A program made the position numbers and the translations under genes. The notes beneath the pieces were generated by a model. It saw nothing but the letters and a program-made list of their open reading frames with translations, did not search any database and was not told where the DNA came from. 64,000 nucleotides of DNA from an uncultured delta proteobacterium. GTDB taxonomy: Bacteria; Myxococcota_A; Polyangia; Polyangiales; Polyangiaceae. Positions within the stretch are counted from its first letter, which is position 1; each line of letters begins with the position of its first letter. The DNA is taken from the NCBI GenBank assembly GCA_963841435.1, contig CAWJCS010000006.1, positions 1,024,001 to 1,088,000 on the forward strand. The letters run 5' to 3'. Positions 7,460-52,002 of the stretch are shown one piece after another.

Positions 7460-8821
7460 TCAGCGGGGAAGCCTCGCGATCACGCTGCGGACCACGGCCC
7501 GCCCCTTGCCCTTGAGTTCGCGGAGGCTCTCCGGGCCAAGGTCGTGGGTTTCGGCGAGCAGTGCGGCGAGCTCCGCGGTGACGAGCGTCTCACCGGGGCG
7601 GGCGGCCGTTTCGAGCCGGCTCGCGACGTTCACGGCGTCGCCCCAGAGGTCGTAGAGCAGGCGCTCGCGGCCGAGCACGCCGGCCATCGCTTCGCCACGC
7701 GCGATGCCCACGCGCAAATGCAGGTCGCGCCCGCGCCGTGCCGCCACCTCGGCCACCTTGAGGTGCATGCTCAGGGCCGCGTCGGCCGCGGCTATCGCGT
7801 CGTGCGAGGTCGGCTTCTCGATGCCCAGCACGGCGAGGTACCCGTCGCCGATCGTCTTGATCTTTTCGAGCGCGTGGCTCTTTGCGACCCCGTCGAACTC
7901 CGAGAACAGCTCGTCGAGCAGCTCGACGAGCTCGGGCGGCTTGAGCGCCGATGCGAGCTGCGTGAAATCGCACAGGTCGGCCATCACGATCGTGAGCTTT
8001 TCGTGGGAGTCGGCGATCGGCGCCTCGCCGGCGCGCAGGCGCTCGACGATGCGGGCCGGCAGCACGGCCGAGAGGAGCTTTTCGGTCTTCTGGCGCTCGG
8101 CCTCGAGCTTCTCGTTGACGGCCGCGAGGGCGCTGTGCTGCCGTTCGATCGTGACGCGTTGCTCGAAATCCCTCGCCTTCGTTCGGTAGAGCATGCGCGA
8201 AAAGATCACGCAGACCGCCGTGAAGCCGGCGCCGTTGATGCCTTGACTGAACGCGAGGGGCGGCTCCGTCGTGAAGGCGAGCTGGCCCGCGAGGAAGGCC
8301 GCGTAGCCGGCACCGAACGCCAGATACGTCGGCAGGCTCTCGAACGTCACGAACAGCGCAGACCCGATGGCGACGATCAGATAGACGGTGATTCCCGCGC
8401 CGATGAGCTGGTCGACGCCCGACAGCACGCCGCTCCACACGAGGAAGAACGCCGTCGTGATATAGGCGACGCGCGCCTTCGACGCGGCATTGGCGGTCAG
8501 CTGCGACACCAGCATCGAAAGAGCGGTGCCGACGAGCATCATGACGTGCAGGACGAAGAGCCAGCTTTGCCAAGTGCGCTCGGGGGCGCTCTCGGCCGGC
8601 GCCTGGACGAGGTCGTGCACGACGAGCCCGAGGTGCACGACGAAGAGCAGGATCGAGAACGCGCGTAGCCGCTCCACCGCCTGTTTGCCGAGCTCCTTTC
8701 GGAAGAGAGAAAGCTCCTCCGCAGCCAGGCCGATGCGGTGCCGGAGCGCGAGCCGCCCCAACCCGAGGGCACGTCCACGCGTGGCTGCCTCGGCGCGTTC
8801 GACCATCGCGTCGTCGAGCAT
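7460..8821 (-). CDS. Membrane-anchored class III adenylate cyclase
   Basis: About 6 TM helices, S-helix-like EKLLSAVLP, ADLCDFT, EKIKTIGDGY, RVGIARG, YDLWGDAVNVASRLE (Lys/Asp indicate ATP specificity); start approximate. Confidence 0.9.
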   Translation of the reverse strand: MLDDAMVERAEAATRGRALGLGRLALRHRIGLAAEELSLFRKELGKQAVERLRAFSILLFVVHLGLVVHDLVQAPAESAPERTWQSWLFVLHVMMLVGTALSMLVSQLTANAASKARVAYITTAFFLVWSGVLSGVDQLIGAGITVYLIVAIGSALFVTFESLPTYLAFGAGYAAFLAGQLAFTTEPPLAFSQGINGAGFTAVCVIFSRMLYRTKARDFEQRVTIERQHSALAAVNEKLEAERQKTEKLLSAVLPARIVERLRAGEAPIADSHEKLTIVMADLCDFTQLASALKPPELVELLDELFSEFDGVAKSHALEKIKTIGDGYLAVLGIEKPTSHDAIAAADAALSMHLKVAEVAARRGRDLHLRVGIARGEAMAGVLGRERLLYDLWGDAVNVASRLETAARPGETLVTAELAALLAETHDLGPESLRELKGKGRAVVRSVIARLPR

Positions 8822-37652: not shown

Positions 37653-39503
37653 CTGATCGCGCCCGCCGAAGCCAAGCCGGAGCTTTCGAAATACGAGCTC
37701 TGCCGGGAGATCGGCCACGGCGGCATGGCGACCGTGTATCTCGCGCGCGACCGGCGCCTGGGGCGCGAGGTCGCGCTGAAGATCATTCACCGCCACCTGC
37801 GGGAAAATACCGAGGTCGCGGCGCGGTTCGCGAGCGAAGCGCGCGCCGTCGCGAAGCTCAAGCACCCCAACATCGTCGAGGTTTACGACGTTTCGGACGA
37901 GACCGAGCCGGAGCGTTATCTCGTGGTCGAGTTCGTGCGTGGCACCACGTTGCGGGCGCTCATGGCCGAGCACGAGCGCTTGCCGACCGAGATTGCGGCC
38001 ATCATCGGCGTCGAGGTCGCGCTCGGCCTCGGTCATGCTCACGACTTCGGCGTCATTCACCGCGACGTGAAGCCCGAGAACGTGCTGATCGCCGCGCCGT
38101 CTCTCGGCCAGTCTGCCGACCGTACGAGCTACCCGGACGATCCACTCGTCAAGATCACCGATTTCGGGATCGCGAAGCTGCTCGACGCGCAGGGCGTCAC
38201 GTCGACGGGCCAGGTGCTCGGTTCGCCCGCGCACATGGCGCCCGAGCAGATCGAGGGTGGTGACGTCGACGCGCGCTCGGACGTGTTCGGCCTCGGCGTG
38301 ATGCTCTACGAGTCGATGGTCGGTCGGCTGCCCTTCGACGGGAAGAACCCCGCGCAGGTGCTGCGCCGCGTGCTCGACGGCGCCTTCACGCCCCCCGACA
38401 AGGCGCGCCCGAGCGTGGGCGCGCAGTTTTCGGCCATCGTGTCGCGCGCGCTCGCGCACGAGCAGCCGGGTCGCTACGCGAGCGCGCAGGAGCTCGCCGA
38501 GGCGCTCAGGACCGAGCTCACGGAGCTCGGTTTCTTGGATTTACGCGGCGAGCTTCGGTCATTCCTGACTGATCCGGCCGCGTACAAGGCAGGTTACGAG
38601 GATCGCATCGTCGATAGGCTCGTGCGCCGAGCGAGCGACGCGCGGCTCACGCGCAACATCCCGCTCTCGGCGGCGTGCCTGAACCGCGCGCTCGCGATGC
38701 GCCCCGACGACGCCGACCTGCTCGCCGAGGTGTCGAGCCTCGGACGGGCCGAGCGGCTGCGCCGCAATCTGCGCACGGGCGCGCTCGCTCTCGGCGGCAG
38801 CGCGCTCGTGGCGGCGCTTTCGTTCGGACTCTCGAGCGTGCCCTCTCCAGGCGCACGCTCGAAGGCGGCACCGGCGGCCGACCCGTCCTCCGCGGCCCTG
38901 GGGAGCGAGGCCATGCCGCGCGCGTCCGCGTCCGGCGCCGCGCGCGCGAAGAAGAAGCGGACCGAGTCCGCCACCGACGACACGGAGGACGTCCCGAAGC
39001 GGCCCCCGCTCCGGCCGGCCGTCAACCGCACGCCCGAGCCTCCCGTCGAGGTGGAGCATGCGCCCGTTCGCATCGCCGTTGACGGACCCCAGAACGCCAC
39101 CATCCGCCTGGACGGCGCCGAGCTTCGCGATTGGTTCGGAACGCAGAGCATCAGCGTGGGCACCCACGTGTTCGAGTTCATCCCCCCGAACAGCGAGTGC
39201 TGCGAGGGTGCTCAGCGCCTGACCGTCGAGGTCCGCCCGCCGGCCGGCAACGGGGAGCCGCAGCGGGTTCGTGGCCGCATCGCCTTCAAAGGCGCCATGC
39301 TCGACCTCCGGGGCACTCCTGGGACGCGGGCGAGCTGCGGCGAGCTCGGGGAATTTCCGGTTCCGAGCCGGCAGACCTTCGAGATGGCCACGGCCGTGCG
39401 TCCGGCGCGCTGCACGCTCATCCCCTCGCCGGGAAGCGGTGCCCTCCCGAAAGAATTTGACGTCACCCTGAGCCCCGGCCGACTCTCGAGTATCGGCCCC
39501 TGA
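37653..39503 (+). CDS. Membrane Ser/Thr protein kinase (start uncertain, probably non-canonical)
   Basis: YELCREIGHGGMATVY, VALK, HRDVKPEN, DFG, GSPAHMAPE; TM helix; PEGA-like periplasmic part. Confidence 0.92.
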   Translation: MIAPAEAKPELSKYELCREIGHGGMATVYLARDRRLGREVALKIIHRHLRENTEVAARFASEARAVAKLKHPNIVEVYDVSDETEPERYLVVEFVRGTTLRALMAEHERLPTEIAAIIGVEVALGLGHAHDFGVIHRDVKPENVLIAAPSLGQSADRTSYPDDPLVKITDFGIAKLLDAQGVTSTGQVLGSPAHMAPEQIEGGDVDARSDVFGLGVMLYESMVGRLPFDGKNPAQVLRRVLDGAFTPPDKARPSVGAQFSAIVSRALAHEQPGRYASAQELAEALRTELTELGFLDLRGELRSFLTDPAAYKAGYEDRIVDRLVRRASDARLTRNIPLSAACLNRALAMRPDDADLLAEVSSLGRAERLRRNLRTGALALGGSALVAALSFGLSSVPSPGARSKAAPAADPSSAALGSEAMPRASASGAARAKKKRTESATDDTEDVPKRPPLRPAVNRTPEPPVEVEHAPVRIAVDGPQNATIRLDGAELRDWFGTQSISVGTHVFEFIPPNSECCEGAQRLTVEVRPPAGNGEPQRVRGRIAFKGAMLDLRGTPGTRASCGELGEFPVPSRQTFEMATAVRPARCTLIPSPGSGALPKEFDVTLSPGRLSSIGP

Positions 39504-39519
39504 ACGGGCCTGCTCGAGC

Positions 39520-40623
39520 ATGTGCTCCGCCCAACGGTCGATAGTGGTGGCGGCCTTCGCCGGAGTCCTGTGCGCCTCGTCGGTAGCGGGCGCAGAGGCG
39601 AAAGGTGCCGACGTGGCCGCGCCACCGGCACGCTGGCCGGCTGCGAAAACGCCCGCGAGCGCCGCGCCGCCGTCTGCCGGCAAGGCAACCGCCACAAGCC
39701 CGCCCGCCGGTGAGGCAGCGTCGGCGTCGTCGCCGGACGCCGATCTCGACGAAGAGGAGCTCAGCGACGAGGCCGAGCTTGCGCGCATCGTGGGTCTCGT
39801 GGGCGCTGCGCGCTACGAGGAATGTGCCGCGCGGCTCAGCGAGCTGCTCGGTCCGAAGAGCAAGCGTCCGCTCACGGATCCGGACGTCATAGAGACCGCG
39901 CGAATCTACGACGCGACCTGTCTCTTGGGCCTCGACAAGCCCGAGGCCGCCGACGAGCCGCTGCGCGCCGCCATCCGCAAGAACCCGCAGATGCGCGCAC
40001 CCGACAGCCTCGTGTTCCCGCAGAAGGTCGTCGACCGCTTCCTCAAGGTGCGCGAAGAGCTCTACAGCGAGCTCCGCGCCGCCGAGGCCCAGGCGATCGA
40101 CAAGGCGCGGCGCCAGGCGCGCGAGAAACAGCGGCGCGACAGCGAGGACTGGGCTCGCATGCTGCTGCTCGAGCGGCTGGCGCGCCAGGAGGTGCTGATC
40201 ACCAAGAACCACCGCTACATCGCGATGGTCCCCTTCGGTGTCGGCCAGTTTCAAAATGCCGACAAACCGCTCGGTTGGCTCTTCTTCGGAGCCGAAGCCG
40301 CGCTCGGCATCAGCGCGCTCACGTCGCTCGGCGTCCACAGCCACTTGCAGGCGCAGGCCGATCGCATCGCCTCGCGCGGCGGCGTGGCACCGGGTGTCGG
40401 TGATCGATTGCACGCCTGGTGGCTCGCGCTCAACGTGAGCACCTACGGGCTCATCGGCGTGGCGGCGGTCGGGATCACGCAGGCTCAGGTCGCGTTCGTG
40501 CCCGAGGTACGCACCGTGCGCGAGCGCAAGCTGCCGCCGTTGAATCGAGGCACGCTCGAGCTCGCGCCGAACGTCGCCGTGGGCGCGGGCGGGCTCGAGC
40601 TCGGGCTCACGGGGCGGTTCTAG
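39520..40623 (+). CDS. Secreted helical (TPR-like) protein with C-terminal membrane segments
   Basis: Signal peptide, helical domain, VPFGVGQFQN motif, ends LELGLTGRF. Confidence 0.75.
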   Translation: MCSAQRSIVVAAFAGVLCASSVAGAEAKGADVAAPPARWPAAKTPASAAPPSAGKATATSPPAGEAASASSPDADLDEEELSDEAELARIVGLVGAARYEECAARLSELLGPKSKRPLTDPDVIETARIYDATCLLGLDKPEAADEPLRAAIRKNPQMRAPDSLVFPQKVVDRFLKVREELYSELRAAEAQAIDKARRQAREKQRRDSEDWARMLLLERLARQEVLITKNHRYIAMVPFGVGQFQNADKPLGWLFFGAEAALGISALTSLGVHSHLQAQADRIASRGGVAPGVGDRLHAWWLALNVSTYGLIGVAAVGITQAQVAFVPEVRTVRERKLPPLNRGTLELAPNVAVGAGGLELGLTGRF

Positions 40624-41639: not shown

Positions 41640-42824
41640 ATGGATCGCATCGGCCAGTACGACATCGTGCGCCTGCTCGGCGAGGGCGGCATGGGCAAGG
41701 TCTACGAGGCGACCGAGCGCCTCTCGGGGCGGCGGGTCGCGCTCAAGGTGCTCAGGCCGGAGCTCTGCCGCTCGGAGCCGGTCCGGCGCTTGTTCGAGAA
41801 CGAGATGAGCATCCTGGCCGGGCTCGACCACCCGCACGTCGTGCGCTGTCTCGCCTGCGCCGAGGTGGACGGCGAGCTCATGATGGCGCTCGAGCTTTTG
41901 CCGGGGCGCACGCTGCGCGAGGTGCTGCGCGAAAAGGGGCGGCTCGACTGGGTCGAGGCGGCGGGGCTCGTCGGCCAGATCGCGCGGGCGCTCGGCGCGG
42001 CCCACGAGCACGAGCCGCCCATCGTGCACCGCGACTTGAAGCCCGAGAACGTGATGGTGCTCGACGACGGCACGGCGAAGGTCACCGATTTCGGGGTCGC
42101 GAAGCTCGTCGCGGCGCTCGGCTCGGCGACGACGCATAGCGTGGGCACGCTCGCCTACATGAGCCCCGAGCAAATCGACGCCGGGCCCGTCGATCAACGC
42201 AGCGATCTCTACGCGCTCGGGGTGGTGCTCTACGAGCTGCTCGCGGGCCAGCCGCCGTTTCAGTCGAGCTCGCCGCGTGAGCTTTTGAACCTCGCGTGCA
42301 CGGCGGCGCCGCCGCCGCTCGACGAGCCGGTGCGCCGCACGCTGCCGCGCGGCGTCGAACGGCTGCTCTTCGAGCTGCTCGAGAAGCGACCAGAGTCGCG
42401 CCCTGGGTCGGCGGCGGACGTGCTCGCGGCGCTCGAGCCGTTCCTGCCGGACGACGGCGACCCGAGCGCTCCGCGCCCGCGTTCGTCCCGCGAGCGAGCC
42501 GAGGCGCCCACGCTGCCGTCGGTGTCGTCGGGCGCCGGTGAAGAGGCCGAGGAGCCGTCCGGCGCGGCGAACGTGACCGGCAGCGACGCGGCGCCGTCGG
42601 GCGTGGGGGCCGCGCCGGCGCCGGCCAGGACGGCGCGGCGCGAGGACACGATCTTGCTGCTCGAAGGCCGGGCACGCGTGCCGCGCGAGCTGCCGCTCCG
42701 CACGGCGCTCGGCGTGATCGCGCTGGCGTCGGCGCTCGCCGGCATCGTCACGTATTTTTCCGCGCGGGGCGCGGATGCGCCGCGCGACGACCCCGGCGAG
42801 CTCATCGGCCGGAGCGGTCCGTGA
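41640..42824 (+). CDS. Membrane Ser/Thr protein kinase
   Basis: SD AGGAG; LGEGGMGKVY, VALK, HRDLKPEN, DFG, GTLAYMSPE; C-terminal TM. Confidence 0.95.
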   Translation: MDRIGQYDIVRLLGEGGMGKVYEATERLSGRRVALKVLRPELCRSEPVRRLFENEMSILAGLDHPHVVRCLACAEVDGELMMALELLPGRTLREVLREKGRLDWVEAAGLVGQIARALGAAHEHEPPIVHRDLKPENVMVLDDGTAKVTDFGVAKLVAALGSATTHSVGTLAYMSPEQIDAGPVDQRSDLYALGVVLYELLAGQPPFQSSSPRELLNLACTAAPPPLDEPVRRTLPRGVERLLFELLEKRPESRPGSAADVLAALEPFLPDDGDPSAPRPRSSRERAEAPTLPSVSSGAGEEAEEPSGAANVTGSDAAPSGVGAAPAPARTARREDTILLLEGRARVPRELPLRTALGVIALASALAGIVTYFSARGADAPRDDPGELIGRSGP

Positions 42825-44917
42825 CGCTGCGGGCCGCCGAGGCCGTCGGCGGCGCGCTCGTGGTGCTCGCTTCGCTCGGCGTGACGCTCATGGCGGCGCC
42901 GGTGGCGCGCCGCGGTGCTTCCGCGGGTGACGGCGGCCCCACGCCGAGCTCGCGGCTCTCGTTCGCGAGCGATGCGAAGGCGTGCGAGAGCTGCCACCCG
43001 AGGCAGGCGGCCGAGTGGCGCCGATCGGCCATGGCGCATGCCGCCGATTCACCGCTGTTCTTGGCGCTCGAGATGCTCGTCGAGGAGCAGATTGGGCGTT
43101 CGGCGGTGTGCCCCGAGGGCGGGGGCGTGCTCCGGGCGCCCGGCGAGGGGGCCTGTCGCGACCCCGCGAGCGGTGAGCTTCTCGCTGGGTCAGGGGGCGA
43201 AGGATTCTGCGTCAAATGCCACGCGCCCGCGCAGAGCCTCGCCGGGCCTTCCCCGTCCTGGGGTGCGCGCGAAGCCGATCGGTTGCCGCTCTCGCGCCTC
43301 CTCGCTGGCGCGGGGCGCGACGGGGTGGGGTGCACGCTGTGCCACGAGCTCTCGGTGCCGCACCGCGCGGCCGTGCGCGAGCGGGGCAACGCGACGTGGC
43401 GGTCGACGACGAGCGGAGCGCTCTTCTCCTTTCGTCCTGACGCGCTCGAACGGGAGGCCGGCGTGGCCAACTCCGGCTACGCGCTCGAGCCGGCGGTGCT
43501 TTTGGGAGCCGAAGGCGACGAACTCGTGCCGGGCGGCGCGCACCGGCGCATGACGGATGGGGAGCGCCGCTACCTCGGTTCGAGCAAGCTCTGCGGCACG
43601 TGCCACGACGTGCGGCTGTTCGGCACCGACGTCCTCGGGAGCGCGCGCGGCGAGCACTTCAAACGTCTGAGGAACGCCTACGGCGAGTGGCTCGACTACG
43701 CGCGCGAGCGCGAGGCGCGCGGCAAGACCGCGGCGTCGTGCCAGAGCTGTCACCTCTCGACGTTTCCCGGCGTCTGCGTGCCCGGGGCGGGGAGTGGTGA
43801 CGAGCCCGGGGCGCTCGCGGACGCCTGTCCCGAGGGGACGCACTTTTCGGAGCGAGAGCCCGGGGCGCTCGCGCGCGGCTTCGTCGCGACCTCCTCGCGC
43901 TCGAGCGCGCGCGTGCACCCGCATTTTTTCAGCGGCGTCGAGGTGCCGCTCGCGCCGAGCTTCGCGCGGGCGCTCGGCGACGAGAGCGTGCTCGACGCCG
44001 CGGGCACGCCGCTCGGAGCGCGCGCGCGTCGCGATCTGTTGCTCGCGCGGAGCGTCACGCTCACGCTCGGCGCCGTGGGGCGCACGGCGCGTGGCGTCGA
44101 GGTCCCCGTGACGGTCGAAAACGTGGCGGCGGGTCACCGCGTGCCCGCGGGTTTCAGCCAGGAGCGCGAGCTCTGGGTGCACCTTCGCGTCACCGACGCG
44201 CGCGGAAGCACCGTTTACGAGGTGGGACGCGTCGAGCGTCCCGACGAGGATCTCGCCGACAAACGTTTCGTGGCCGTTCGGACCGACGACGGCGAGCTCG
44301 ACGCGCTCGGGCGGCCGCTCGGCTTGTTCGGCGCGGATGTGGTCGACGGGCCCGACGTTCCGCGCTGGGACCCGCCACCCGACCGCGGCGGAACGCGCTT
44401 TTTCGGCCGGGGCCTCGCGAGCTTCCAGAACGGCTTTCTTCGCTGCGTGCGCTGCATCGGTACGATCGACGCGAGCGGCCGGTGTCAGCCGCTCTCCGGA
44501 CAGGAGGGCGCGCGCGCCGATCGCTTCGCCGACGGCGACTACGATCCGGAAACGGGCGAGTGCCGGTCGAACCTCGCTGGGCGCGAAGCACTATTCGAGA
44601 CGTACTTCCCAGTGGGTGCGCTCGACGCGACGCGCGGCATCGCCAAGGCGCCGGACGCCATCATCGACACGCGCTCGCTGCCGCCAGAACGTCCGGTGAC
44701 GTACGTCTACCGGCTCGACGCGCCGCCCGGTCCGCTCGTCGTCGAGGCGCGCCTCATGTTTCGCGCCTTTCCGCCGTATCTCCTGCGAGCCTTTGCCGCC
44801 TACGAGCAGCGAATGGCCGCCCTCGGGCGCCGCCCCGACGGGCCGCTCTTCGGCGAGGACGCGCTCGAACGGCTCGATCTCGTGGAGCTCGCGCGCGCGC
44901 GCGTCGTTGCGGACTGA
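42821..44917 (+). CDS. Multiheme (5 CxxCH) cytochrome c, c554-like, with C-terminal Ig-like domain
   Basis: N-terminal anchor; CESCH, CVKCH, CTLCH, CGTCH, CQSCH; HFFSG; AGHRVPAG. Confidence 0.88.
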   Translation: MTLRAAEAVGGALVVLASLGVTLMAAPVARRGASAGDGGPTPSSRLSFASDAKACESCHPRQAAEWRRSAMAHAADSPLFLALEMLVEEQIGRSAVCPEGGGVLRAPGEGACRDPASGELLAGSGGEGFCVKCHAPAQSLAGPSPSWGAREADRLPLSRLLAGAGRDGVGCTLCHELSVPHRAAVRERGNATWRSTTSGALFSFRPDALEREAGVANSGYALEPAVLLGAEGDELVPGGAHRRMTDGERRYLGSSKLCGTCHDVRLFGTDVLGSARGEHFKRLRNAYGEWLDYAREREARGKTAASCQSCHLSTFPGVCVPGAGSGDEPGALADACPEGTHFSEREPGALARGFVATSSRSSARVHPHFFSGVEVPLAPSFARALGDESVLDAAGTPLGARARRDLLLARSVTLTLGAVGRTARGVEVPVTVENVAAGHRVPAGFSQERELWVHLRVTDARGSTVYEVGRVERPDEDLADKRFVAVRTDDGELDALGRPLGLFGADVVDGPDVPRWDPPPDRGGTRFFGRGLASFQNGFLRCVRCIGTIDASGRCQPLSGQEGARADRFADGDYDPETGECRSNLAGREALFETYFPVGALDATRGIAKAPDAIIDTRSLPPERPVTYVYRLDAPPGPLVVEARLMFRAFPPYLLRAFAAYEQRMAALGRRPDGPLFGEDALERLDLVELARARVVAD

Positions 44918-44918
44918 C

Positions 44919-47141
44919 ATGGCGACGGACGGGCCTGCACTCGATCCTCGCGAGCTCGCGGCTGTGTTCACCCGGGCGCCGCTCGCCGCTCTCGACGCCC
45001 GGGGGCGCGCGGACCTCGCGCTCGCGGCGCGCGTGCGGCGCCTCGACCCCGGCACGATGCTGTTCGGCGGCGGCGCGACGGCCGATTCGCTCTTCGTCGT
45101 CGCACGAGGCGCGCTCGTGGTCGACGAGGAGGGCGGCCCGCGGACGCACGGTGAAGGGGAGCTCTTCGGTCGCGAGGCGCTCGTGCCGGGTGCGCGACGC
45201 TCGGGTGCGGCGGTCGCGCGCGAGTCGAGCGCGGTGCTCGAGCTGCCGCTCGGTGTGCTGCGCCGGGTGCTCGCACGCTCGGGAGCCGGCGCCGAGCTCG
45301 CGCGTGCGGAGCGCGACGCGCGTGCGGCGGCCTTCGGCCGGCTGGTTTCGGCGAGCGAGCTCGGGCGGAGCCTCGACGCGCCGGGCCGGACGCGCCTGCT
45401 CGGTGCGTTGCGCGAGGAGGCGCTTTTTCCCGGGCGCGTGCTCGTCGGGGCGGGCGCGCGCTCCGAGGTCGCGTACGTCGTGGCGTCCGGGCTCGTCGAG
45501 CTCCGCGCGACGGACGGCGGCCGCGTCTTCGTGACACGCGGGGAGCTCTTCGGGCTCGCTCAGGCTCTCTCGCGAGAGCCCTGGCAGGTGACCGTGACGG
45601 CGCTCGGCGACGGCGTGGCGCTCGCCGTTCCTCGCGACACCCTCGTTGCGCTCGAAGAGCGGCACCCGCGCGCCGTGCGCGCCGAGCTCGAACGCCAGGC
45701 GAGCCGCGGCGGGCGTCCGGGGGCCGGGTGGCGCGGCGGCTCGGCCCTGCCGACACGACGCGCCGAGGACGAGCTACCGCGCCTCGCGGCGGCTCGCTCG
45801 CTGCTCGCCATCGATCTTTCGAGCTGTGTCGAATGCGGACACTGCGCCGCGGCGTGCGCCGAGACCCACGGCAGCGCGCGCCTCTCGCGCCGGGGTCCGA
45901 AGACGACCGTGCTGGTGAGTGACGGGGCGGCGGTGCGCGCGCACGCTTTCGTCTTGCCCACGGCGTGCCAGCACTGCCGTGATCCCGTCTGCCTGCCGGA
46001 ATGCCCGACAGGCGCCATCGTGCGCAACGAGCGCGGCGCCGTGCTCGTGCGGGAGGCCGCCTGCACCGGGTGCGGTGCCTGCGTTTCGGCCTGTCCCTGG
46101 GATGCCGTCGCGCTCGTGCCCCGCGAGAAGGGGGTGCCCGAGCCGCCCGGCGTGGCCTCGGCCTTCGTGGCCGCCAAATGCGACCTTTGCGACGGCCGCG
46201 AGGGGCCCGAGTGCGTCGCGGCCTGCCCGACCGGCGCCATCCTCCGCATCGACCCCGAGCGCGAATTGCCCGAGGTGCGCGCGGCGCTCGCGCTTCTGCC
46301 TCGCCACGTCGAGAGGGCGACGGCCCCGCGTCATGCCCGGCACTGGCTCGTCGCGGGGGCGCTCGCGCCGCTCGCGCTCGCCGTCGTCACCGTGCACGTC
46401 ACCGCGCCGGCCACGCTCGGCAGTGGCGTCGCCGCGCTCGTTCCCTGCGCGCTCCTTTGCCTGCACGGCTGGGTGAAGCGTCGCGCCGCCGCACGCGCGC
46501 TCGCCGTTCGAATCGTGCGGCGGTTCGGCGCGGGCTCGGCGCTCCCGGCGCTTTTGCGCGTGCACGCGGTCCTCGGTGCGGCCGCGGCGGGGGCCGTTTC
46601 CTGGCACGCCGGTTTCATGCTTCACGCGGGCGTGAGCGGCGCGCTCGCTCTTTCATTTTTCGCCTCGACGCTGACGGGCGTGTTGGGCGCGCTCGGCTAT
46701 GCGTTCATCCCGAGGCGCCGTGCGCGCCTGGTCGGCAGGGGAGCCTTGCCGGAGGACGACGCCGCACGCCAAGCCGACCTCGAGCGGCAGCGCTTTCAGT
46801 TGCTCACGGGCCAGAACGCAGCCCTGCAGGCGCTCGCGCGCACGCTGCTCGTGCCTTACGCGTCGTCGCGCGTGGGCGCGCTCCTGCTTGCGCTCTCGAA
46901 GCGAACGTCCGGGGACGAAGTGCGTGCGCTCGAGGACCGCGTGAGCGCCATGCTCGGCGGGCGCTCGAGCGCTCGCCTCGCCGCGGCGCCTCGCCTCGTC
47001 GAGCTCAGCGTCGCCTTGCGCCTGCTCCGGGCGGAGCGGTACACGAGCCTCGCGCTGCGCGCCTTCGTGCCGCTGCACCTGGTGCTCGCCGTTCTCGTCG
47101 GGGCGCTCGTCGTCCTGCACGTCGTCGGGGTATCGTCGTGA
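44919..47141 (+). CDS. Tandem cNMP-binding + NrfC/DmsB-like 4x[4Fe-4S] + diheme-b-type membrane domain protein
   Basis: GELFGREAL..ARRS and GELFGLA cNMP folds; CVECGHCAAAC, CQHC....CLPECP, CTGCGACVSACP, CDLC......ECVAACP; two H-X13-H helices. Confidence 0.88.
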   Translation: MATDGPALDPRELAAVFTRAPLAALDARGRADLALAARVRRLDPGTMLFGGGATADSLFVVARGALVVDEEGGPRTHGEGELFGREALVPGARRSGAAVARESSAVLELPLGVLRRVLARSGAGAELARAERDARAAAFGRLVSASELGRSLDAPGRTRLLGALREEALFPGRVLVGAGARSEVAYVVASGLVELRATDGGRVFVTRGELFGLAQALSREPWQVTVTALGDGVALAVPRDTLVALEERHPRAVRAELERQASRGGRPGAGWRGGSALPTRRAEDELPRLAAARSLLAIDLSSCVECGHCAAACAETHGSARLSRRGPKTTVLVSDGAAVRAHAFVLPTACQHCRDPVCLPECPTGAIVRNERGAVLVREAACTGCGACVSACPWDAVALVPREKGVPEPPGVASAFVAAKCDLCDGREGPECVAACPTGAILRIDPERELPEVRAALALLPRHVERATAPRHARHWLVAGALAPLALAVVTVHVTAPATLGSGVAALVPCALLCLHGWVKRRAAARALAVRIVRRFGAGSALPALLRVHAVLGAAAAGAVSWHAGFMLHAGVSGALALSFFASTLTGVLGALGYAFIPRRRARLVGRGALPEDDAARQADLERQRFQLLTGQNAALQALARTLLVPYASSRVGALLLALSKRTSGDEVRALEDRVSAMLGGRSSARLAAAPRLVELSVALRLLRAERYTSLALRAFVPLHLVLAVLVGALVVLHVVGVSS

Positions 47142-49114
47142 CCGAGCGAGCGCGAGCGGGGACGCGCCGAGCGGCGCTCGGCCGCAGCGACGGCGACGTT
47201 CGTCGCTTCGCGGCGCTCGTTCCGGCGCTCGCGCTCGGCGCGGCCGTGCTCGTCGCCGGGCTCGCGATGCTCGACGGCCCAGGCGCGCTCGTTTCGCCGG
47301 GTCCGCTCGCCCCCGCGCACCGCGCGCTCGGGTGCTCGGATTGCCACGCGGCGGGGCGCGCCGAGGCGAGCTGCGGCGGCTGCCATGGCGCCCACCCCTC
47401 GGAGCGCGCCGGCCACCGCGCCCTCGTCGCCGCGGGCAAGCTCGGCTGCAGGTCGTGCCACGCGGCTCACGACGGAGGGCGTGGCGTGCGGTTCGAGCCG
47501 GATGGGCGCGTCGTGTCGTACGGCGGGGCGCACGAGGTCGAGCTCGGCGAGCGCGGCGCAACGGGGCTCCGCGCCGCGCTCGCCGTGCCGTTCGTTCCCG
47601 CGCGCCGCTGCGAACGCTGCCACGACCTTGGCCGAGCGAGCGATGCGGCGGCGCACTGCGTGCTCCCCGGCTCCTCCCGCGACGAGCCCATCCTGTGCTT
47701 CGACGAGCATCGCGCTCCCGCGCGGGCGAGCGCGGCGACGCCGGCCGAGCGGGACGCGGTGCTCGAGCTCGCGCGGGCGGCGGCGCGCGTGGCGCCCGGC
47801 GCGCTCTCGGCGCGTATCCTGGGCGCGCACGGCGTGCTGCTTGCGGCGGCCCTGGCCGGCGCGCTCGCCTTGCTCGCGCGAGGTCGTCGTGCGCCCGTCC
47901 CGCGACCGGTCGTTTTCGAGCCGGGGGCGGCCCGCCGGTTGCCCGTGATCGATGCCACGCGCTGCCTCGGATGCCACGCCTGCGCCGACGCCTGTCCGTA
48001 CGAGGTGCTCGAGATCCGTCGCTACGTCGCGGTCGTCGCGCGCCCCGACGCCTGCACGGGCGCGGGCCCCTGCGAGGAACGCTGTCCGAACGGCTCGCTC
48101 ACGCTGGCGGAGCTCGTTTCAGAGGACGCGCGCCCGGCGGCGCCCGAAAGCACGCCGCTCGAGCGGGCCCCCGGCCTGTTCGTCGCAGGTGACGCCGCGG
48201 GCGGCGCGCTGATCGCGCGGGCGCTTTCCGATGGCGCAGCCGTCGCCGAGACCGTCGTCGCGCGACAAAGGAGCCTGTCCGGCGTCGGGCCCGCCGACGC
48301 CTTCGACCTGCTCGTCGTCGGGGCGGGCCCGGCGGGTCTCGAGGCGGCGCTCGGCGCCAATCGGCGCGGCGCCCGCGTGCTCGTGCTCGAGCAGGCGAGC
48401 ATCGCCGAGAGCATTCGGCGCTTCTCGCGCAAGAAGCTCGTACTGGATGCCGGCCCGCGTGGCAGGTCCCACGAGCTCTTCGCTGGCGACGTCGAAAAAG
48501 AGGAGCTGATCGAGCGCTGGCTGTACGGCGTGCGCGCGGCGCGGCTCGACGTGCGTGAAGGTTTGCGCGTCGTCGACGCGACGCGCGTCGCCGAGGGCGG
48601 CTTTTGCGTGCGCGCGGTTGACGGTGGGGGGAAAGGGCGGGCATTTGCGGCGCGTCTCGTGCTCGTTGCCGTGGGTCGCCGCGGCACGCCGAAGAAGCTC
48701 GCCGCTCCCGTCGCCGATGCCGCCGTCGGTCGCGTGCACTACGAGCTCGCCGACGCGCGCGCCTTCGCCGGGCAACGCGCGCTCGTGGTCGGGCTCGGCG
48801 ACGTCGCCATGGAGACGGCGCTCGCGCTCGCGGCGCAGCCGGGTACCGAGGTTACCGTCGTCCATCGTGGTCAGGGTTTCGGCCGTGGTCGAAGGCGCAA
48901 CGTCGAGGCGCTCTCCCGGCTCGTGGCGCGGGGCAGGGTGGGGCTCTTGCTCGCGGCTCGAGTCGTCGCCGTCGAGTCCGACCGCGTCCGCATCGACGCG
49001 AAAGGCGGGCCAGCCGCCCTCGCGTACGACGCGTTGTTCGTCGCCATCGGATCGATCCCGAACGATGTCCTCGTCACGAGCGATGGCGTTGCGTTCGGTA
49101 CGAAGAGCGGCTAA
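47138..49114 (+). CDS. Tetraheme cytochrome c + ferredoxin + FAD/NAD(P)H oxidoreductase fusion
   Basis: PGPLAPAH; CSDCH, CGGCH, CRSCH, CERCH; TM; CLGCHACADACP, CTGAGPCEERCP; GLFVAGD, VVGAGPAG, VVGLGDVA, HRGQGFGR. Confidence 0.88.
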   Translation: MTERARAGTRRAALGRSDGDVRRFAALVPALALGAAVLVAGLAMLDGPGALVSPGPLAPAHRALGCSDCHAAGRAEASCGGCHGAHPSERAGHRALVAAGKLGCRSCHAAHDGGRGVRFEPDGRVVSYGGAHEVELGERGATGLRAALAVPFVPARRCERCHDLGRASDAAAHCVLPGSSRDEPILCFDEHRAPARASAATPAERDAVLELARAAARVAPGALSARILGAHGVLLAAALAGALALLARGRRAPVPRPVVFEPGAARRLPVIDATRCLGCHACADACPYEVLEIRRYVAVVARPDACTGAGPCEERCPNGSLTLAELVSEDARPAAPESTPLERAPGLFVAGDAAGGALIARALSDGAAVAETVVARQRSLSGVGPADAFDLLVVGAGPAGLEAALGANRRGARVLVLEQASIAESIRRFSRKKLVLDAGPRGRSHELFAGDVEKEELIERWLYGVRAARLDVREGLRVVDATRVAEGGFCVRAVDGGGKGRAFAARLVLVAVGRRGTPKKLAAPVADAAVGRVHYELADARAFAGQRALVVGLGDVAMETALALAAQPGTEVTVVHRGQGFGRGRRRNVEALSRLVARGRVGLLLAARVVAVESDRVRIDAKGGPAALAYDALFVAIGSIPNDVLVTSDGVAFGTKSG

Positions 49115-50091: not shown

Positions 50092-50573
50092 GGCGTCGGC
50101 TCGTCATCGGCGCGCTCGAGCCCGTCAACATTCCGGCCTGGGGCGTGTTCGGAATCGACGCACGCGTCGATACGGGGGCGCTCACGAGCGCGCTGCACGT
50201 CGAGAACCTGCGTGAGCTCGGCGGGGGGCGCGTGGCGTTCGACGTGCGCGTGAAGGCTCGCGGCAGGGGAGCGACGACGGGCGTCGTCGCGACGGTGGCG
50301 CGCCGCGGTCGGGTGCGCTCGTCGAACGGCGGACTCTCCGTTCGCTTGTTCGTCGCCGCGCGCGTGCAGCTTGGCCCCGTGCTCCGGCGCGTCGAGGTCG
50401 GGCTCGTCGACCGCCGGAGCATGACGTACCGCATGTTGCTGGGGCGAACGGCCCTCGCCGGCTACTTTCTCGTCGACCCCGCCGCGGAGCGAACGCTCGC
50501 TAGCCGTCGCCCGAAACCAGCGCCCGCGTCGCTCAGAAAGCGAGCTTTGACGCGCCGACCTGGTTCCGCTTGA
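50088..50573 (+). CDS. RimK-associated retropepsin-like protease (DUF785/RimB type)
   Basis: ARVDTGALTSALH, VRSSNG, DRRSMTYRMLLGR. Confidence 0.85.
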   Translation: MRRRLVIGALEPVNIPAWGVFGIDARVDTGALTSALHVENLRELGGGRVAFDVRVKARGRGATTGVVATVARRGRVRSSNGGLSVRLFVAARVQLGPVLRRVEVGLVDRRSMTYRMLLGRTALAGYFLVDPAAERTLASRRPKPAPASLRKRALTRRPGSA

Positions 50574-52002
50574 GCGAGGCCTTGTCGCGCTCCGCTCGCT
50601 CGTCGGCCGCGATGCTCGCGGGCGGCTCGGCAAAGCCTTCGCGCGCGGCGTCGAGCGCTTCGAGCTGCCGGTCGAAGCGGCGCCCGAGCGCAGCGACCTC
50701 GCCCTTCGGTGCGGCGGCGACGGCCGCAGCGCGGCTCTGTTGGACCTCGGCGGCCTTCTGGGCGACGCGCCGGCGAGCGCCTTCGCTATCGCCCTTGCGG
50801 AACAGCTCGTTGGCGTCGGTGAGGGCGACGGTGGTGGTGCTGCGAGCGACGCGTTCCTCGACGAGCGGATCGATGCGCGAGCGCGAGCCGTCGCTCGTGA
50901 ACGCCACGAACAGGCGACCATCGCAGGTCGCGTCGTGACCATCCCTGAGATCGGTGTAGTCGAGGTGGGCGTTCAGAACTTCGCGGTCGCCGGGCGCGCC
51001 GCCGTCCACGCGCAAACGCGCGAGCAGCGTCCGCTCCTCGCCGGCCGACATGATGCCGAGGTCGACGACGACGCGCGAGCCCTCTCGCCGGAAGCTGCGG
51101 TCCGCGACGTCCAAGAGCTCGACGCCGGGCGCGAGCTCGAGCGAGAGTGACACGTCGCGCGCGACCGAGCGCTCGAGCCCTCCGAGCTCGCGCTCGAACA
51201 CGCCGGCCAGGCCCGCCGGGCCCTCGACGAAGTGGTGGTTGCCGTTGGTATTGGCGGCGATCGCCGCCATCATCTGCTCGTTGTAGTCGACGCCGAGCCC
51301 GATCGTGCTGATCGTCGCGCCCGCCGCGCGGACCCGCTCGGTGAAGCGTCGCATGCCGTTCACGCTGGTTTCGCCGCGCGTCGCCTGCCCGTCGGAGAGC
51401 AAAAGGACGCGGCTCACGAACCCCGCGCGCTCCCGCAAGAGGTCGGCGCTCTCTTCGAGCGCACACGAAATGCACGTGTCGCCGCCCGACGTGATGCCGG
51501 AGAGCGCCCGCTCGACGCGCTCGCGGCTCGAGGCGTCAACCGTGGTCGGCGACACGAGCACGCGCGCGGTCGTCTGGTAGTCGATGACGCTCACGAGGTC
51601 GCCATCGCGGAGCTTATGCGTGGCGCGCTTGGCCGCGTCGATGGCGTCGTCGAGCTTCTTGCCCTCCATCGAGCCCGAACGGTCGATGAGGATCGAAAGG
51701 TGCCGGTGCGACTCGCGCCCGATGGCGGAGCGGTCCGCTCGAACGGCGATGAAGGCGAATTCTTCCTGCTCGCTGCCGGCCGGCAGGCGCGCGTGCCCGA
51801 GCCGCCCCTCGATGCGCAGAAGATCGCCCCCCTCGAACACCGGGCCGCGGGTGCTGGTCGGGACGAGCGGACGATCGGGACGGCGGGGTGCGGTGCGTTC
51901 CGAGCCCACCGAGCGTTCGGGTCGAGCCGAAAGCGAGCGGACGCCGAGGCTCGTGACCAACATTCCCAGGGCGGCGAGCGCCCCCACGGTGCGAATTTTC
52001 AT
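50533..52002 (-). CDS. von Willebrand factor A domain protein
   Basis: MIDAS DRSGSM, GGDT, LLSDGQA, TIGLGVDYNE; N-terminal signal; SD GGGAG. Confidence 0.88.
   Translation of the reverse strand: MKIRTVGALAALGMLVTSLGVRSLSARPERSVGSERTAPRRPDRPLVPTSTRGPVFEGGDLLRIEGRLGHARLPAGSEQEEFAFIAVRADRSAIGRESHRHLSILIDRSGSMEGKKLDDAIDAAKRATHKLRDGDLVSVIDYQTTARVLVSPTTVDASSRERVERALSGITSGGDTCISCALEESADLLRERAGFVSRVLLLSDGQATRGETSVNGMRRFTERVRAAGATISTIGLGVDYNEQMMAAIAANTNGNHHFVEGPAGLAGVFERELGGLERSVARDVSLSLELAPGVELLDVADRSFRREGSRVVVDLGIMSAGEERTLLARLRVDGGAPGDREVLNAHLDYTDLRDGHDATCDGRLFVAFTSDGSRSRIDPLVEERVARSTTTVALTDANELFRKGDSEGARRRVAQKAAEVQQSRAAAVAAAPKGEVAALGRRFDRQLEALDAAREGFAEPPASIAADERAERDKASLKRNQVGASKLAF

Follow-up and report, generated by a model that had tools for sequence, protein, structure and literature searches.

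The ptdABCDEFG operon was named in 2024, and the preprint that named it describes its function as "completely unknown" (Elbon, Stewart and Glass, bioRxiv 10.1101/2023.11.21.568154). As outlined there, PtdE combines a cyclic nucleotide-binding (CNB) domain with 4Fe-4S clusters, PtdF is a ferric-reductase-like membrane protein and PtdA is a pentaheme homologue of cytochrome c552 with a beta-sandwich, accompanied by an FAD/NAD(P) oxidoreductase, the porin PtdB, the decaheme PtdG and the tetraheme PtdD. Membrane domains of the ferric reductase domain (FRD) superfamily (NOX, FRE, MsrQ) carry four His and pass electrons outward, a reductive function treated as conserved in the superfamily account (PMC3591440). 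Here, we describe a variant of the ptd arrangement in a 64,000-nucleotide stretch of an uncultured delta proteobacterium of the Polyangiaceae (assembly GCA_963841435.1, contig CAWJCS010000006.1, positions 1,024,001 to 1,088,000; hereafter the window). Its central gene encodes a protein, termed the focal protein below, that by sequence comparison joins PtdE-like and PtdF-like parts in one chain. The domain set thus belongs to an already described operon, and the fused arrangement is a variant form of it. We consider it moderately probable that the focal protein forms the middle of an inner-membrane conduit of three proteins from NADPH to the periplasm, and that its activity is tied to a Ser/Thr kinase more than to cyclic nucleotides. 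The features of the locus are collected in Table 1.

Table 1. Positions in the window of the focal gene, its domains and the neighboring genes
Feature	Position	Strand	Description
Ser/Thr kinase	41640..42824	+	Intact HRD and DFG; C-terminal membrane helix; stop overlaps pentaheme start; orthologue directly upstream in 39/39 close loci
Pentaheme cytochrome c	42821..44917	+	c552 (5ZE8)/PHC family, PtdA-like; N-terminal membrane helix; five CxxCH; no pseudokinase here
Focal protein, CNB-CNB-[4x Fe-S]-membrane four-His	44919..47141	+	740 aa; PtdE-like part joined to PtdF-like part; flavin domain lacking
CNB domain 1	44961..45323	+	Approximately residues 15-135; in cassette G84-R85-E86...R94, Gly and Arg keep the register and the canonical Glu is replaced by Arg
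CNB domain 2	45336..45704	+	About residues 140-262; degenerate cassette, G212-L213, W222 at Arg position
DmsB/NrfC-type 16-Cys module	45825..46226	+	C303-C436; four predicted [4Fe-4S] clusters, cytoplasmic
Membrane domain	46335..47135	+	Five predicted transmembrane helices; cytoplasmic helical insert; His549/563/720/734; two predicted b hemes; C-terminus outside
Gene 3	47138..49114	+	Two membrane helices flanking a periplasmic tetraheme c, then a ferredoxin domain with 7 Cys and a TrxR/FNR-type flavoprotein, circularly permuted and lacking CxxC
vWA protein	50533..52002	-	N-terminal hydrophobic segment; probable start 52002; convergent, two genes away here

The reading frame of the focal gene is open throughout, with its ATG one base past the upstream stop and its own stop overlapping the GTG start of gene 3. 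A promoter scan found none, and terminators occurred at chance level. The first-pass annotation, made from the sequence alone, had proposed two cyclic nucleotide-binding folds, four Cys groups with 16 Cys and two exact H-X13-H pairs in this single protein, and each of these elements was recovered. Pfam placed two cNMP_binding stretches (E 1.1e-24, above cut-off) next to Fer4 families, and fold matches with Z scores up to 17.3 found the CNB beta-barrel twice. The 16 Cys lie within residues 303-436, and the His codons stand exactly at 46563, 46605, 47076 and 47118. A protein search listed 120 matches, of which 116 of at least 660 aa (query included) were aligned and four shorter ones left out; those with names come from Polyangiaceae, Minicystis and Labilithrix. 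All 16 Cys as well as H549, H563, H720 and H734 were invariant in these 116 proteins, so that the loss of the His in homologues, which would have spoken against the annotation, was not seen. Two H-X13-H pairs also appeared in 4% of 20,000 shuffles of the protein; the spacing alone is therefore weak evidence and conservation decides, ruling out a chance origin of the pattern. A GTDB pattern scan with the single focal protein returned two unrelated Fe-S loci and nothing else.

The relationship to ptd was established with relatives from 80 metagenome loci and 16 genome stretches. In 58 loci, a flavin domain, two CNB domains and the Fe-S module form one protein with the flavin domain at its N-terminus. 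In most cases, a stand-alone four-His membrane protein and an FHA-bearing decaheme cytochrome are encoded next, and genes for a tetraheme, an HbpS-like protein and a probable porin are close by. These split loci were assigned to ptd by the published description of the operon rather than by Ptd sequences. A profile of the 58 split proteins alone matched focal residues 24-448 (E 3.6e-56), and a profile of 49 stand-alone membrane proteins matched residues 503-737 (E 8e-5, Z=1e6) with the four His aligned and found 108 of the 116 family members at E<1e-3. The focal protein is thus made of fused ptd-type parts that split-only profiles recognize, and the idea of a stand-alone fusion oddity was rejected. 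Compared with ptd as described (10.1101/2023.11.21.568154), the locus shares the CNB-4Fe-4S part, the four-His membrane part, the c552-type pentaheme and the flavin oxidoreductase. It differs in the joining of E and F into a single chain and in a permuted flavin domain carried on the tetraheme membrane protein. In addition, tblastn of the 95% complete genome (E<1e-4, one query each) found no homologues of porin PtdB, decaheme PtdG or tetraheme PtdD, making the locus a variant and not a full member. Kinase, pseudokinase and vWA genes are added in the fused loci, and neither "kinase" nor "FHA" occurs in the main text of the ptd paper. The focal CNB cassettes are, moreover, degenerate.

Other fusions of the same parts were also found. 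In a third form, present in 12 loci of the same genus, the membrane domain is joined to the pentaheme beside a flavin-FHA-FHA protein; these loci (L029-L042) also encode a Fer4-CNB-CNB-FeS protein, and in four of them an 889-aa protein without a Pfam or NCBIfam match lies upstream (L034:13273-15942). One chain in P0325, named Magnetococcus sp., holds the flavin domain, both CNB domains, the Fe-S module and the membrane domain. Seven loci from other families keep the focal domain order, followed by an FHA/heptaheme/ferredoxin/flavin fusion. In the other forms, FHA domains are carried by partner proteins. In these seven (L162-L168), the next protein is 1220-1300 aa long with FHA domains, seven heme motifs, ferredoxin and flavin parts, the first CNB cassette is canonical in five of seven, and divergent gene clusters encode cytochromes with 7 to 16 hemes. 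Because the same domains (flavin, Fe-S, two CNB, four-His membrane, multiheme c) recur in five fusions, the three-gene form reveals the minimal core of the ptd system. In a FastTree phylogeny, a branch set apart each of the three forms (38 fused, 12 third-form and 58 split proteins); the tree was unrooted and carried long-branch warnings, and no order of events was inferred from it. Among 109 genomes of the same family, 41 had the fused form in a match covering the query and seven more had partial matches; the form was also found in other families of the class.

The membrane domain is predicted to hold two bis-His b hemes. An AlphaFold model of the whole protein (pLDDT 90.5, pTM 0.86) placed H549 and H563 in one helix (541-564) and H720 and H734 in another (690-739), and the annotated position of the His within membrane helices was thereby confirmed, each pair on one long helix. 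Lys plus Arg counts of 7, 6 and 4 in the cytoplasmic loops and 0 in the outside loops put the C-terminus outside, the Fe-S module and the helical insert inside, H549 and H720 near the cytoplasm and H563 and H734 near the periplasm. Across 64 aligned membrane domains of 14-40% identity, 49 of them stand-alone proteins, the four His were invariant. The domain resembles the FRD superfamily (PMC3591440) in having four His distributed over two similarly oriented helices, in a T-G in the helix between them (T586-G587 here) and in NAD(P)H/FAD input from the cytoplasmic side, and the placement of its His across the membrane is like that in NOX2. It differs from the superfamily, as characterized in the same source, by an 85-residue helical insert, by an Fe-S relay and by a TrxR-type rather than FNR-fold flavin domain on another chain. 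The comparison with NOX drawn in the first-pass annotation therefore stands for the paired-His helices and fails for the spacing, which is X13 plus X12 in NOX2 (H101/H115 and H209/H222; PMC3591440) and X13 plus X13 here. The reactive oxygen species-generating NOX group has an extra His four places after the outer TM3 (third transmembrane helix) His (His-119 in NOX2; PMC3591440), where the focal protein has Met567. A NOX-type superoxide source was considered and rejected.

Structural searches gave a less definite picture of this domain. Whole-protein fold searches picked up the CNB domains only, Foldseek on the membrane domain returned no match at E<=0.001, and a PDB sequence search with the membrane-domain profile yielded noise without a real match. 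VIA-align retrieved generic helical bundles, among which the designed two-heme bundle 4D2 (7ah0) was tied at Z 9.2 (rmsd 1.9, 99 aligned); the top 50 contained no solved cytochrome b. These outcomes do not speak against any of the folds considered. Leads from the ESM Atlas all scored under 0.9, one of them being named ferric-reductase-like. The annotated role, electron transfer through a membrane domain predicted to bind two hemes, is well supported by the invariant ligands, the clean topology and the flavin input and cytochrome output in the surrounding genes, but the fold searches brought no clear cytochrome b match to it.

The Fe-S module is nearest to DsrO, HydN, DmsB and NrfC among NCBIfam models and reached no equivalog cut-off, lying far below them (DsrO 77 versus 200 bits, DmsB 63 versus 214). 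It shares the four-group 16-Cys pattern of DmsB/NrfC/FdnH-type subunits with diheme anchors, but has no molybdoenzyme partner and is joined to two CNB domains. Its electron supply would be provided by gene 3, which, together with the pentaheme gene, accompanies the focal gene in all 39 fused loci. These loci comprise the window, two from the genus, 32 of the 41 family genomes and four metagenome contigs, a fifth contig of 4 kb having been excluded as too short. The nearest solved relatives of the gene 3 flavin domain are Bdr/YpdA (E 2.6e-11) and ferredoxin-NADP reductases (2.7e-11), and its profile matched 61 split-family proteins (best E 2e-53). In the window (48140-49111), the C-terminal GD-motif segment that ends the domain in these 61 relatives precedes the first Rossmann motif, a circular permutation. 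The domain contains no Cys at all and hence no CxxC; a true thioredoxin reductase was rejected on account of this missing redox-active motif. Its predicted mode of action is that of a ferredoxin-NADP reductase of the TrxR type. Two Arg behind the second Rossmann motif, R577 (kept in 107 of 108 sequences) and R583 (108 of 108), are taken, by comparison with thioredoxin reductases, to be an NADPH-type signature. The ferredoxin domain (window 47960-48090) has seven Cys, with Thr307 where at least 90% of relatives have Cys, and because of this replacement one of its clusters may be [3Fe-4S].

The three genes therefore suggest a continuous cofactor chain from cytoplasm to periplasm. NADPH would reduce FAD in the TrxR/FNR-type domain in the cytoplasmic tail of gene 3, and electrons would pass through the gene 3 ferredoxin clusters to the four Fe-S clusters of the focal protein, cross the membrane through its two bis-His b hemes, and continue over the periplasmic tetraheme of gene 3 to the pentaheme, which would reduce a small periplasmic acceptor. 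The two CNB domains would serve as a regulatory clamp, set by cAMP or cGMP in the split relatives, with the ligand likely lost or changed in the focal lineage. Sequence and comparison directly show the domains, the invariant Cys and His, the topology, the order of the genes and the kinship with the split ptd parts; from these we infer which cofactors are bound, that the proteins form a complex, which way electrons flow, how specific the donor is, and what the acceptor and the regulation would be. Direct transfer from heme b to heme c, together with the outside C-terminus, fits the third form, in which membrane domain and pentaheme are one protein. Also in favor of the conduit, a flavin domain accompanies focal-type proteins, being N-terminal in the 58 split loci and on the same chain in P0325. 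By analogy with four-His FRD domains, the flow would be outward. The opposite direction is very improbable in our estimation; here, the pentaheme would take electrons from a periplasmic donor of low potential, for example a sulfur compound, and NADP+ would be reduced by the wire. It draws on the ferredoxin-NADP reductases among the nearest solved relatives of the flavin domain and on the low potential and suggested sulfur role of T. tepidum c552 (PMC11976967). Set against these are the reductive function treated as conserved in the FRD account (PMC3591440) and the lack of an energy-coupling subunit among the neighbors. Transfer from a c heme to NADP+ is, in addition, uphill for most donors.

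At the periplasmic end, the pentaheme family profile matched T. tepidum c552 (5ZE8; E 2.4e-16, heme domain plus C-terminal stretch) and MccSep (1.6e-6), and the window pentaheme used alone had no PDB match. The family thereby connects with PHC cytochromes, which include T. tepidum c552, Geobacter MccSep/ExtKL and cable-bacterial PHC. As far as those cytochromes are described, it differs from them in four extra (near-)invariant Cys pairs, a membrane anchor and, mostly, fusion to a pseudokinase. In MccSep, heme 2 has His/Cys ligation, with selenocysteine, according to the preprint describing it (10.1101/2025.11.18.688581). The pentaheme profile has no Cys aligned at that ligand position, and a MccSep-type polysulfide reductase was rejected because the heme-ligating Cys is not kept. 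Eight further Cys (97, 112, 319, 336, 542, 545, 555 and 581), including a CxxC without His, are kept in 37-39 of 39 relatives and may represent either disulfides or an additional cofactor. A second pentaheme homologue in the focal genome (L155:6364-7950, - strand) shows 24% identity, a lipoprotein-like N-terminus and no pseudokinase. In the 95% complete focal genome, tblastn (E<1e-4) gave no match to porin, decaheme, PtdD-type tetraheme or HbpS-like queries, one per gene from split loci, and the wire of the fused form therefore probably ends in the periplasm. Among the split-locus partners themselves are an HbpS-like repeat protein (20 loci; L057:4181-6253), a probable outer-membrane barrel without a family match (23 loci; L054:10109-12025) and a 1,300-aa decaheme with LVIVD repeats (L077:12941-17092).

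The association with phosphorylation rests on the gene directly upstream. The adjacent kinase is orthologous across loci (E at most 1.1e-93) and is almost without an outside domain. In 34 of the 39 loci, the pentaheme has a kinase-like domain at its N-terminus, plus a membrane helix (pairwise search identified 32 of these and a profile two more), and since HRD or DFG is kept in none of the 32 aligned domains, we regard it as a pseudokinase. Such pseudokinase-membrane helix-pentaheme fusions adjoining an intact kinase are seen in L126:4721-7813 and 33 other loci (e.g., L043, L130, L154), and the fusion recurs in 12 of 13 loci of the fused type from other families. This arrangement invites another explanation, namely that the locus is a myxobacterial receptor kinase system in which a five-heme sensor on the pseudokinase, paired with the active Ser/Thr kinase and wired through the focal protein to NADPH, forms a receptor for redox state or heme ligands that can be reset. 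Phosphorylation would then be switched from outside by an oxidant or heme ligand, and the wire would merely re-reduce the pentaheme. A single machine would in this case combine electron flow across the membrane, domains of the cyclic-nucleotide type and phosphorylation. The absence of porin and decaheme matches from the tblastn search of the genome, the loss of the MccSep heme-ligating Cys, through which the heme site may be open, and the HbpS-like proteins beside 20 split loci all accord with such a receptor. However, the focal genome and four other loci keep wire and kinase without a pseudokinase, the 58 split loci lack such a fusion and mostly lack the kinase, a reset function would be expensive for so long a cofactor chain, and phosphorylation could equally run from kinase to wire. 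We regard the receptor as unlikely.

Cyclic nucleotides, which the first-pass annotation had proposed as the gating ligand, found a divided answer. In their two tandem CNB folds, the focal domains are like tandem-CNB regulators (PKA R subunit, PKG), which were the best Foldseek matches; here, however, the output is an Fe-S module instead of a kinase and the cassette residues are partly lost. The cassette Glu binds the ribose 2'-OH, and the cassette Arg binds the phosphate. Where PKG has F-G-E, the focal protein has G84-R85 at site 1 and G212-L213 at site 2. The description of cassette 1 as near-canonical thus holds for G84 and R94, which are in register, but not for Arg85, which stands where PKG has Glu; the degenerate state of cassette 2 was correctly recognized, since it has neither Glu nor Arg (W222). 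Across the fused family, site 1 has Gly in 116 of 116 proteins, Arg (R94) in 115, Glu in 56 and an acid one place later in all 116, and Gly-Glu is commoner among the fused loci (G84-E85 in 34/38). At site 2, Gly-Glu is kept in only 3 of 116. The split proteins (n=58) have canonical cassettes at both sites, with Gly-Glu in 58 and 54 and Arg at +10 in 54 and 48, respectively. In third-form proteins, the site-1 Arg is gone in 12 of 12 and both CNB domains are kept, so that both domains are always retained and the ligand residues are not.

Genes of cyclic nucleotide turnover follow the same division. An SpdA/CpdA-like cyclic nucleotide phosphodiesterase gene, below NCBIfam cut-offs, lies beside 12 split loci (e.g., L115:12264-13112), mostly directly after the decaheme gene. 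The 39 fused loci gave no cyclase or phosphodiesterase match, and the focal genome has six cyclase matches and none to the split-locus phosphodiesterase. The window itself contains a class III adenylate/guanylate cyclase domain (7499-8011, - strand) 37 kb from the operon with no sign of linkage; a linked cyclase was rejected, the nearest being that far away and a cyclase match occurring at only one of the other loci. Gating by cAMP or cGMP is therefore likely for the wider family, where about nine in ten split cassettes are canonical and phosphodiesterase genes adjoin 12 loci, and doubtful for the focal copy, which has lost Glu at site 1 and both Glu and Arg at site 2. A wire opened by cAMP or cGMP on the focal protein's own CNB domains would be a variant of the NADPH-to-periplasm conduit and compatible with it. 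Both folds are intact, and G84 and R94 stand at the canonical distance.

Several results weigh against the conduit with its tie to the kinase. The window pentaheme is one of the five among 39 without a pseudokinase, the kinase is absent from the seven further loci with the focal domain order, and in the 13 loci of the fused type from other families it lies directly upstream in eight, divergent in two, downstream in one and outside the stretch in two. The 39/39 counts overstate the association, as the genomes are kin and not independent. Site 1 may still bind a nucleotide in most of the fused family, because of the near-universal R94 and the prevalence of G84-E85 at fused loci. For the membrane part, the focal domain matches no Pfam family, PF01794 included, and the Pfam matches of its 64 relatives all fall below cut-off: cytochrome b561 in 40 (best 3.7e-7), DUF4405 in 20 and ferric reductase in 14 (best 3.8e-4). 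DmsB/NrfC-type subunits with diheme anchors usually exchange electrons with quinones. Together with the weak b561 matches and the kinship of the Fe-S part, whose nearest relatives work with membrane partners that react with quinones, this would speak for an NADPH:quinone oxidoreductase, or its reverse, in which the b hemes would exchange with the quinone pool and the cytochromes would be linked via quinol only. Yet the membrane-pentaheme fusion of the third form and the tetraheme anchored on the flavoprotein favor a hard-wired path, and no NrfD/PsrC or NapC-type partner recurs among the neighbors; we hold the quinone module to be improbable.

The membrane-domain profile retrieved 3,949 clusters at 50% identity (E up to 1e-10), indicating that the ptd system, to which no function is assigned, is widespread, and the three-gene form is small enough for expression and assay. 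If the proposed conduit is correct, it would be a bacterial counterpart of regulated NADPH oxidases, with a cytochrome instead of oxygen at its end, and it would link redox chemistry to protein phosphorylation. In searches of the open-access literature, we did not find the fused form, the permuted flavoprotein or the kinase/pseudokinase-cytochrome pair described, and the pseudokinase-cytochrome fusion of most relatives would be a kind of receptor not found there. The operon is broken in two relatives, in each of which one gene is divided between two frames (the focal gene in L145, gene 3 in L150); this may reflect assembly error or decay. The vWA gene lies inside the fetched stretch in 31 of 39 loci, on the same strand in 29. 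Upstream in the window (37725-40623) lie genes for another Ser/Thr kinase and for a 367-aa protein that looks secreted and has no family match, in an order shared by L027 and L028.

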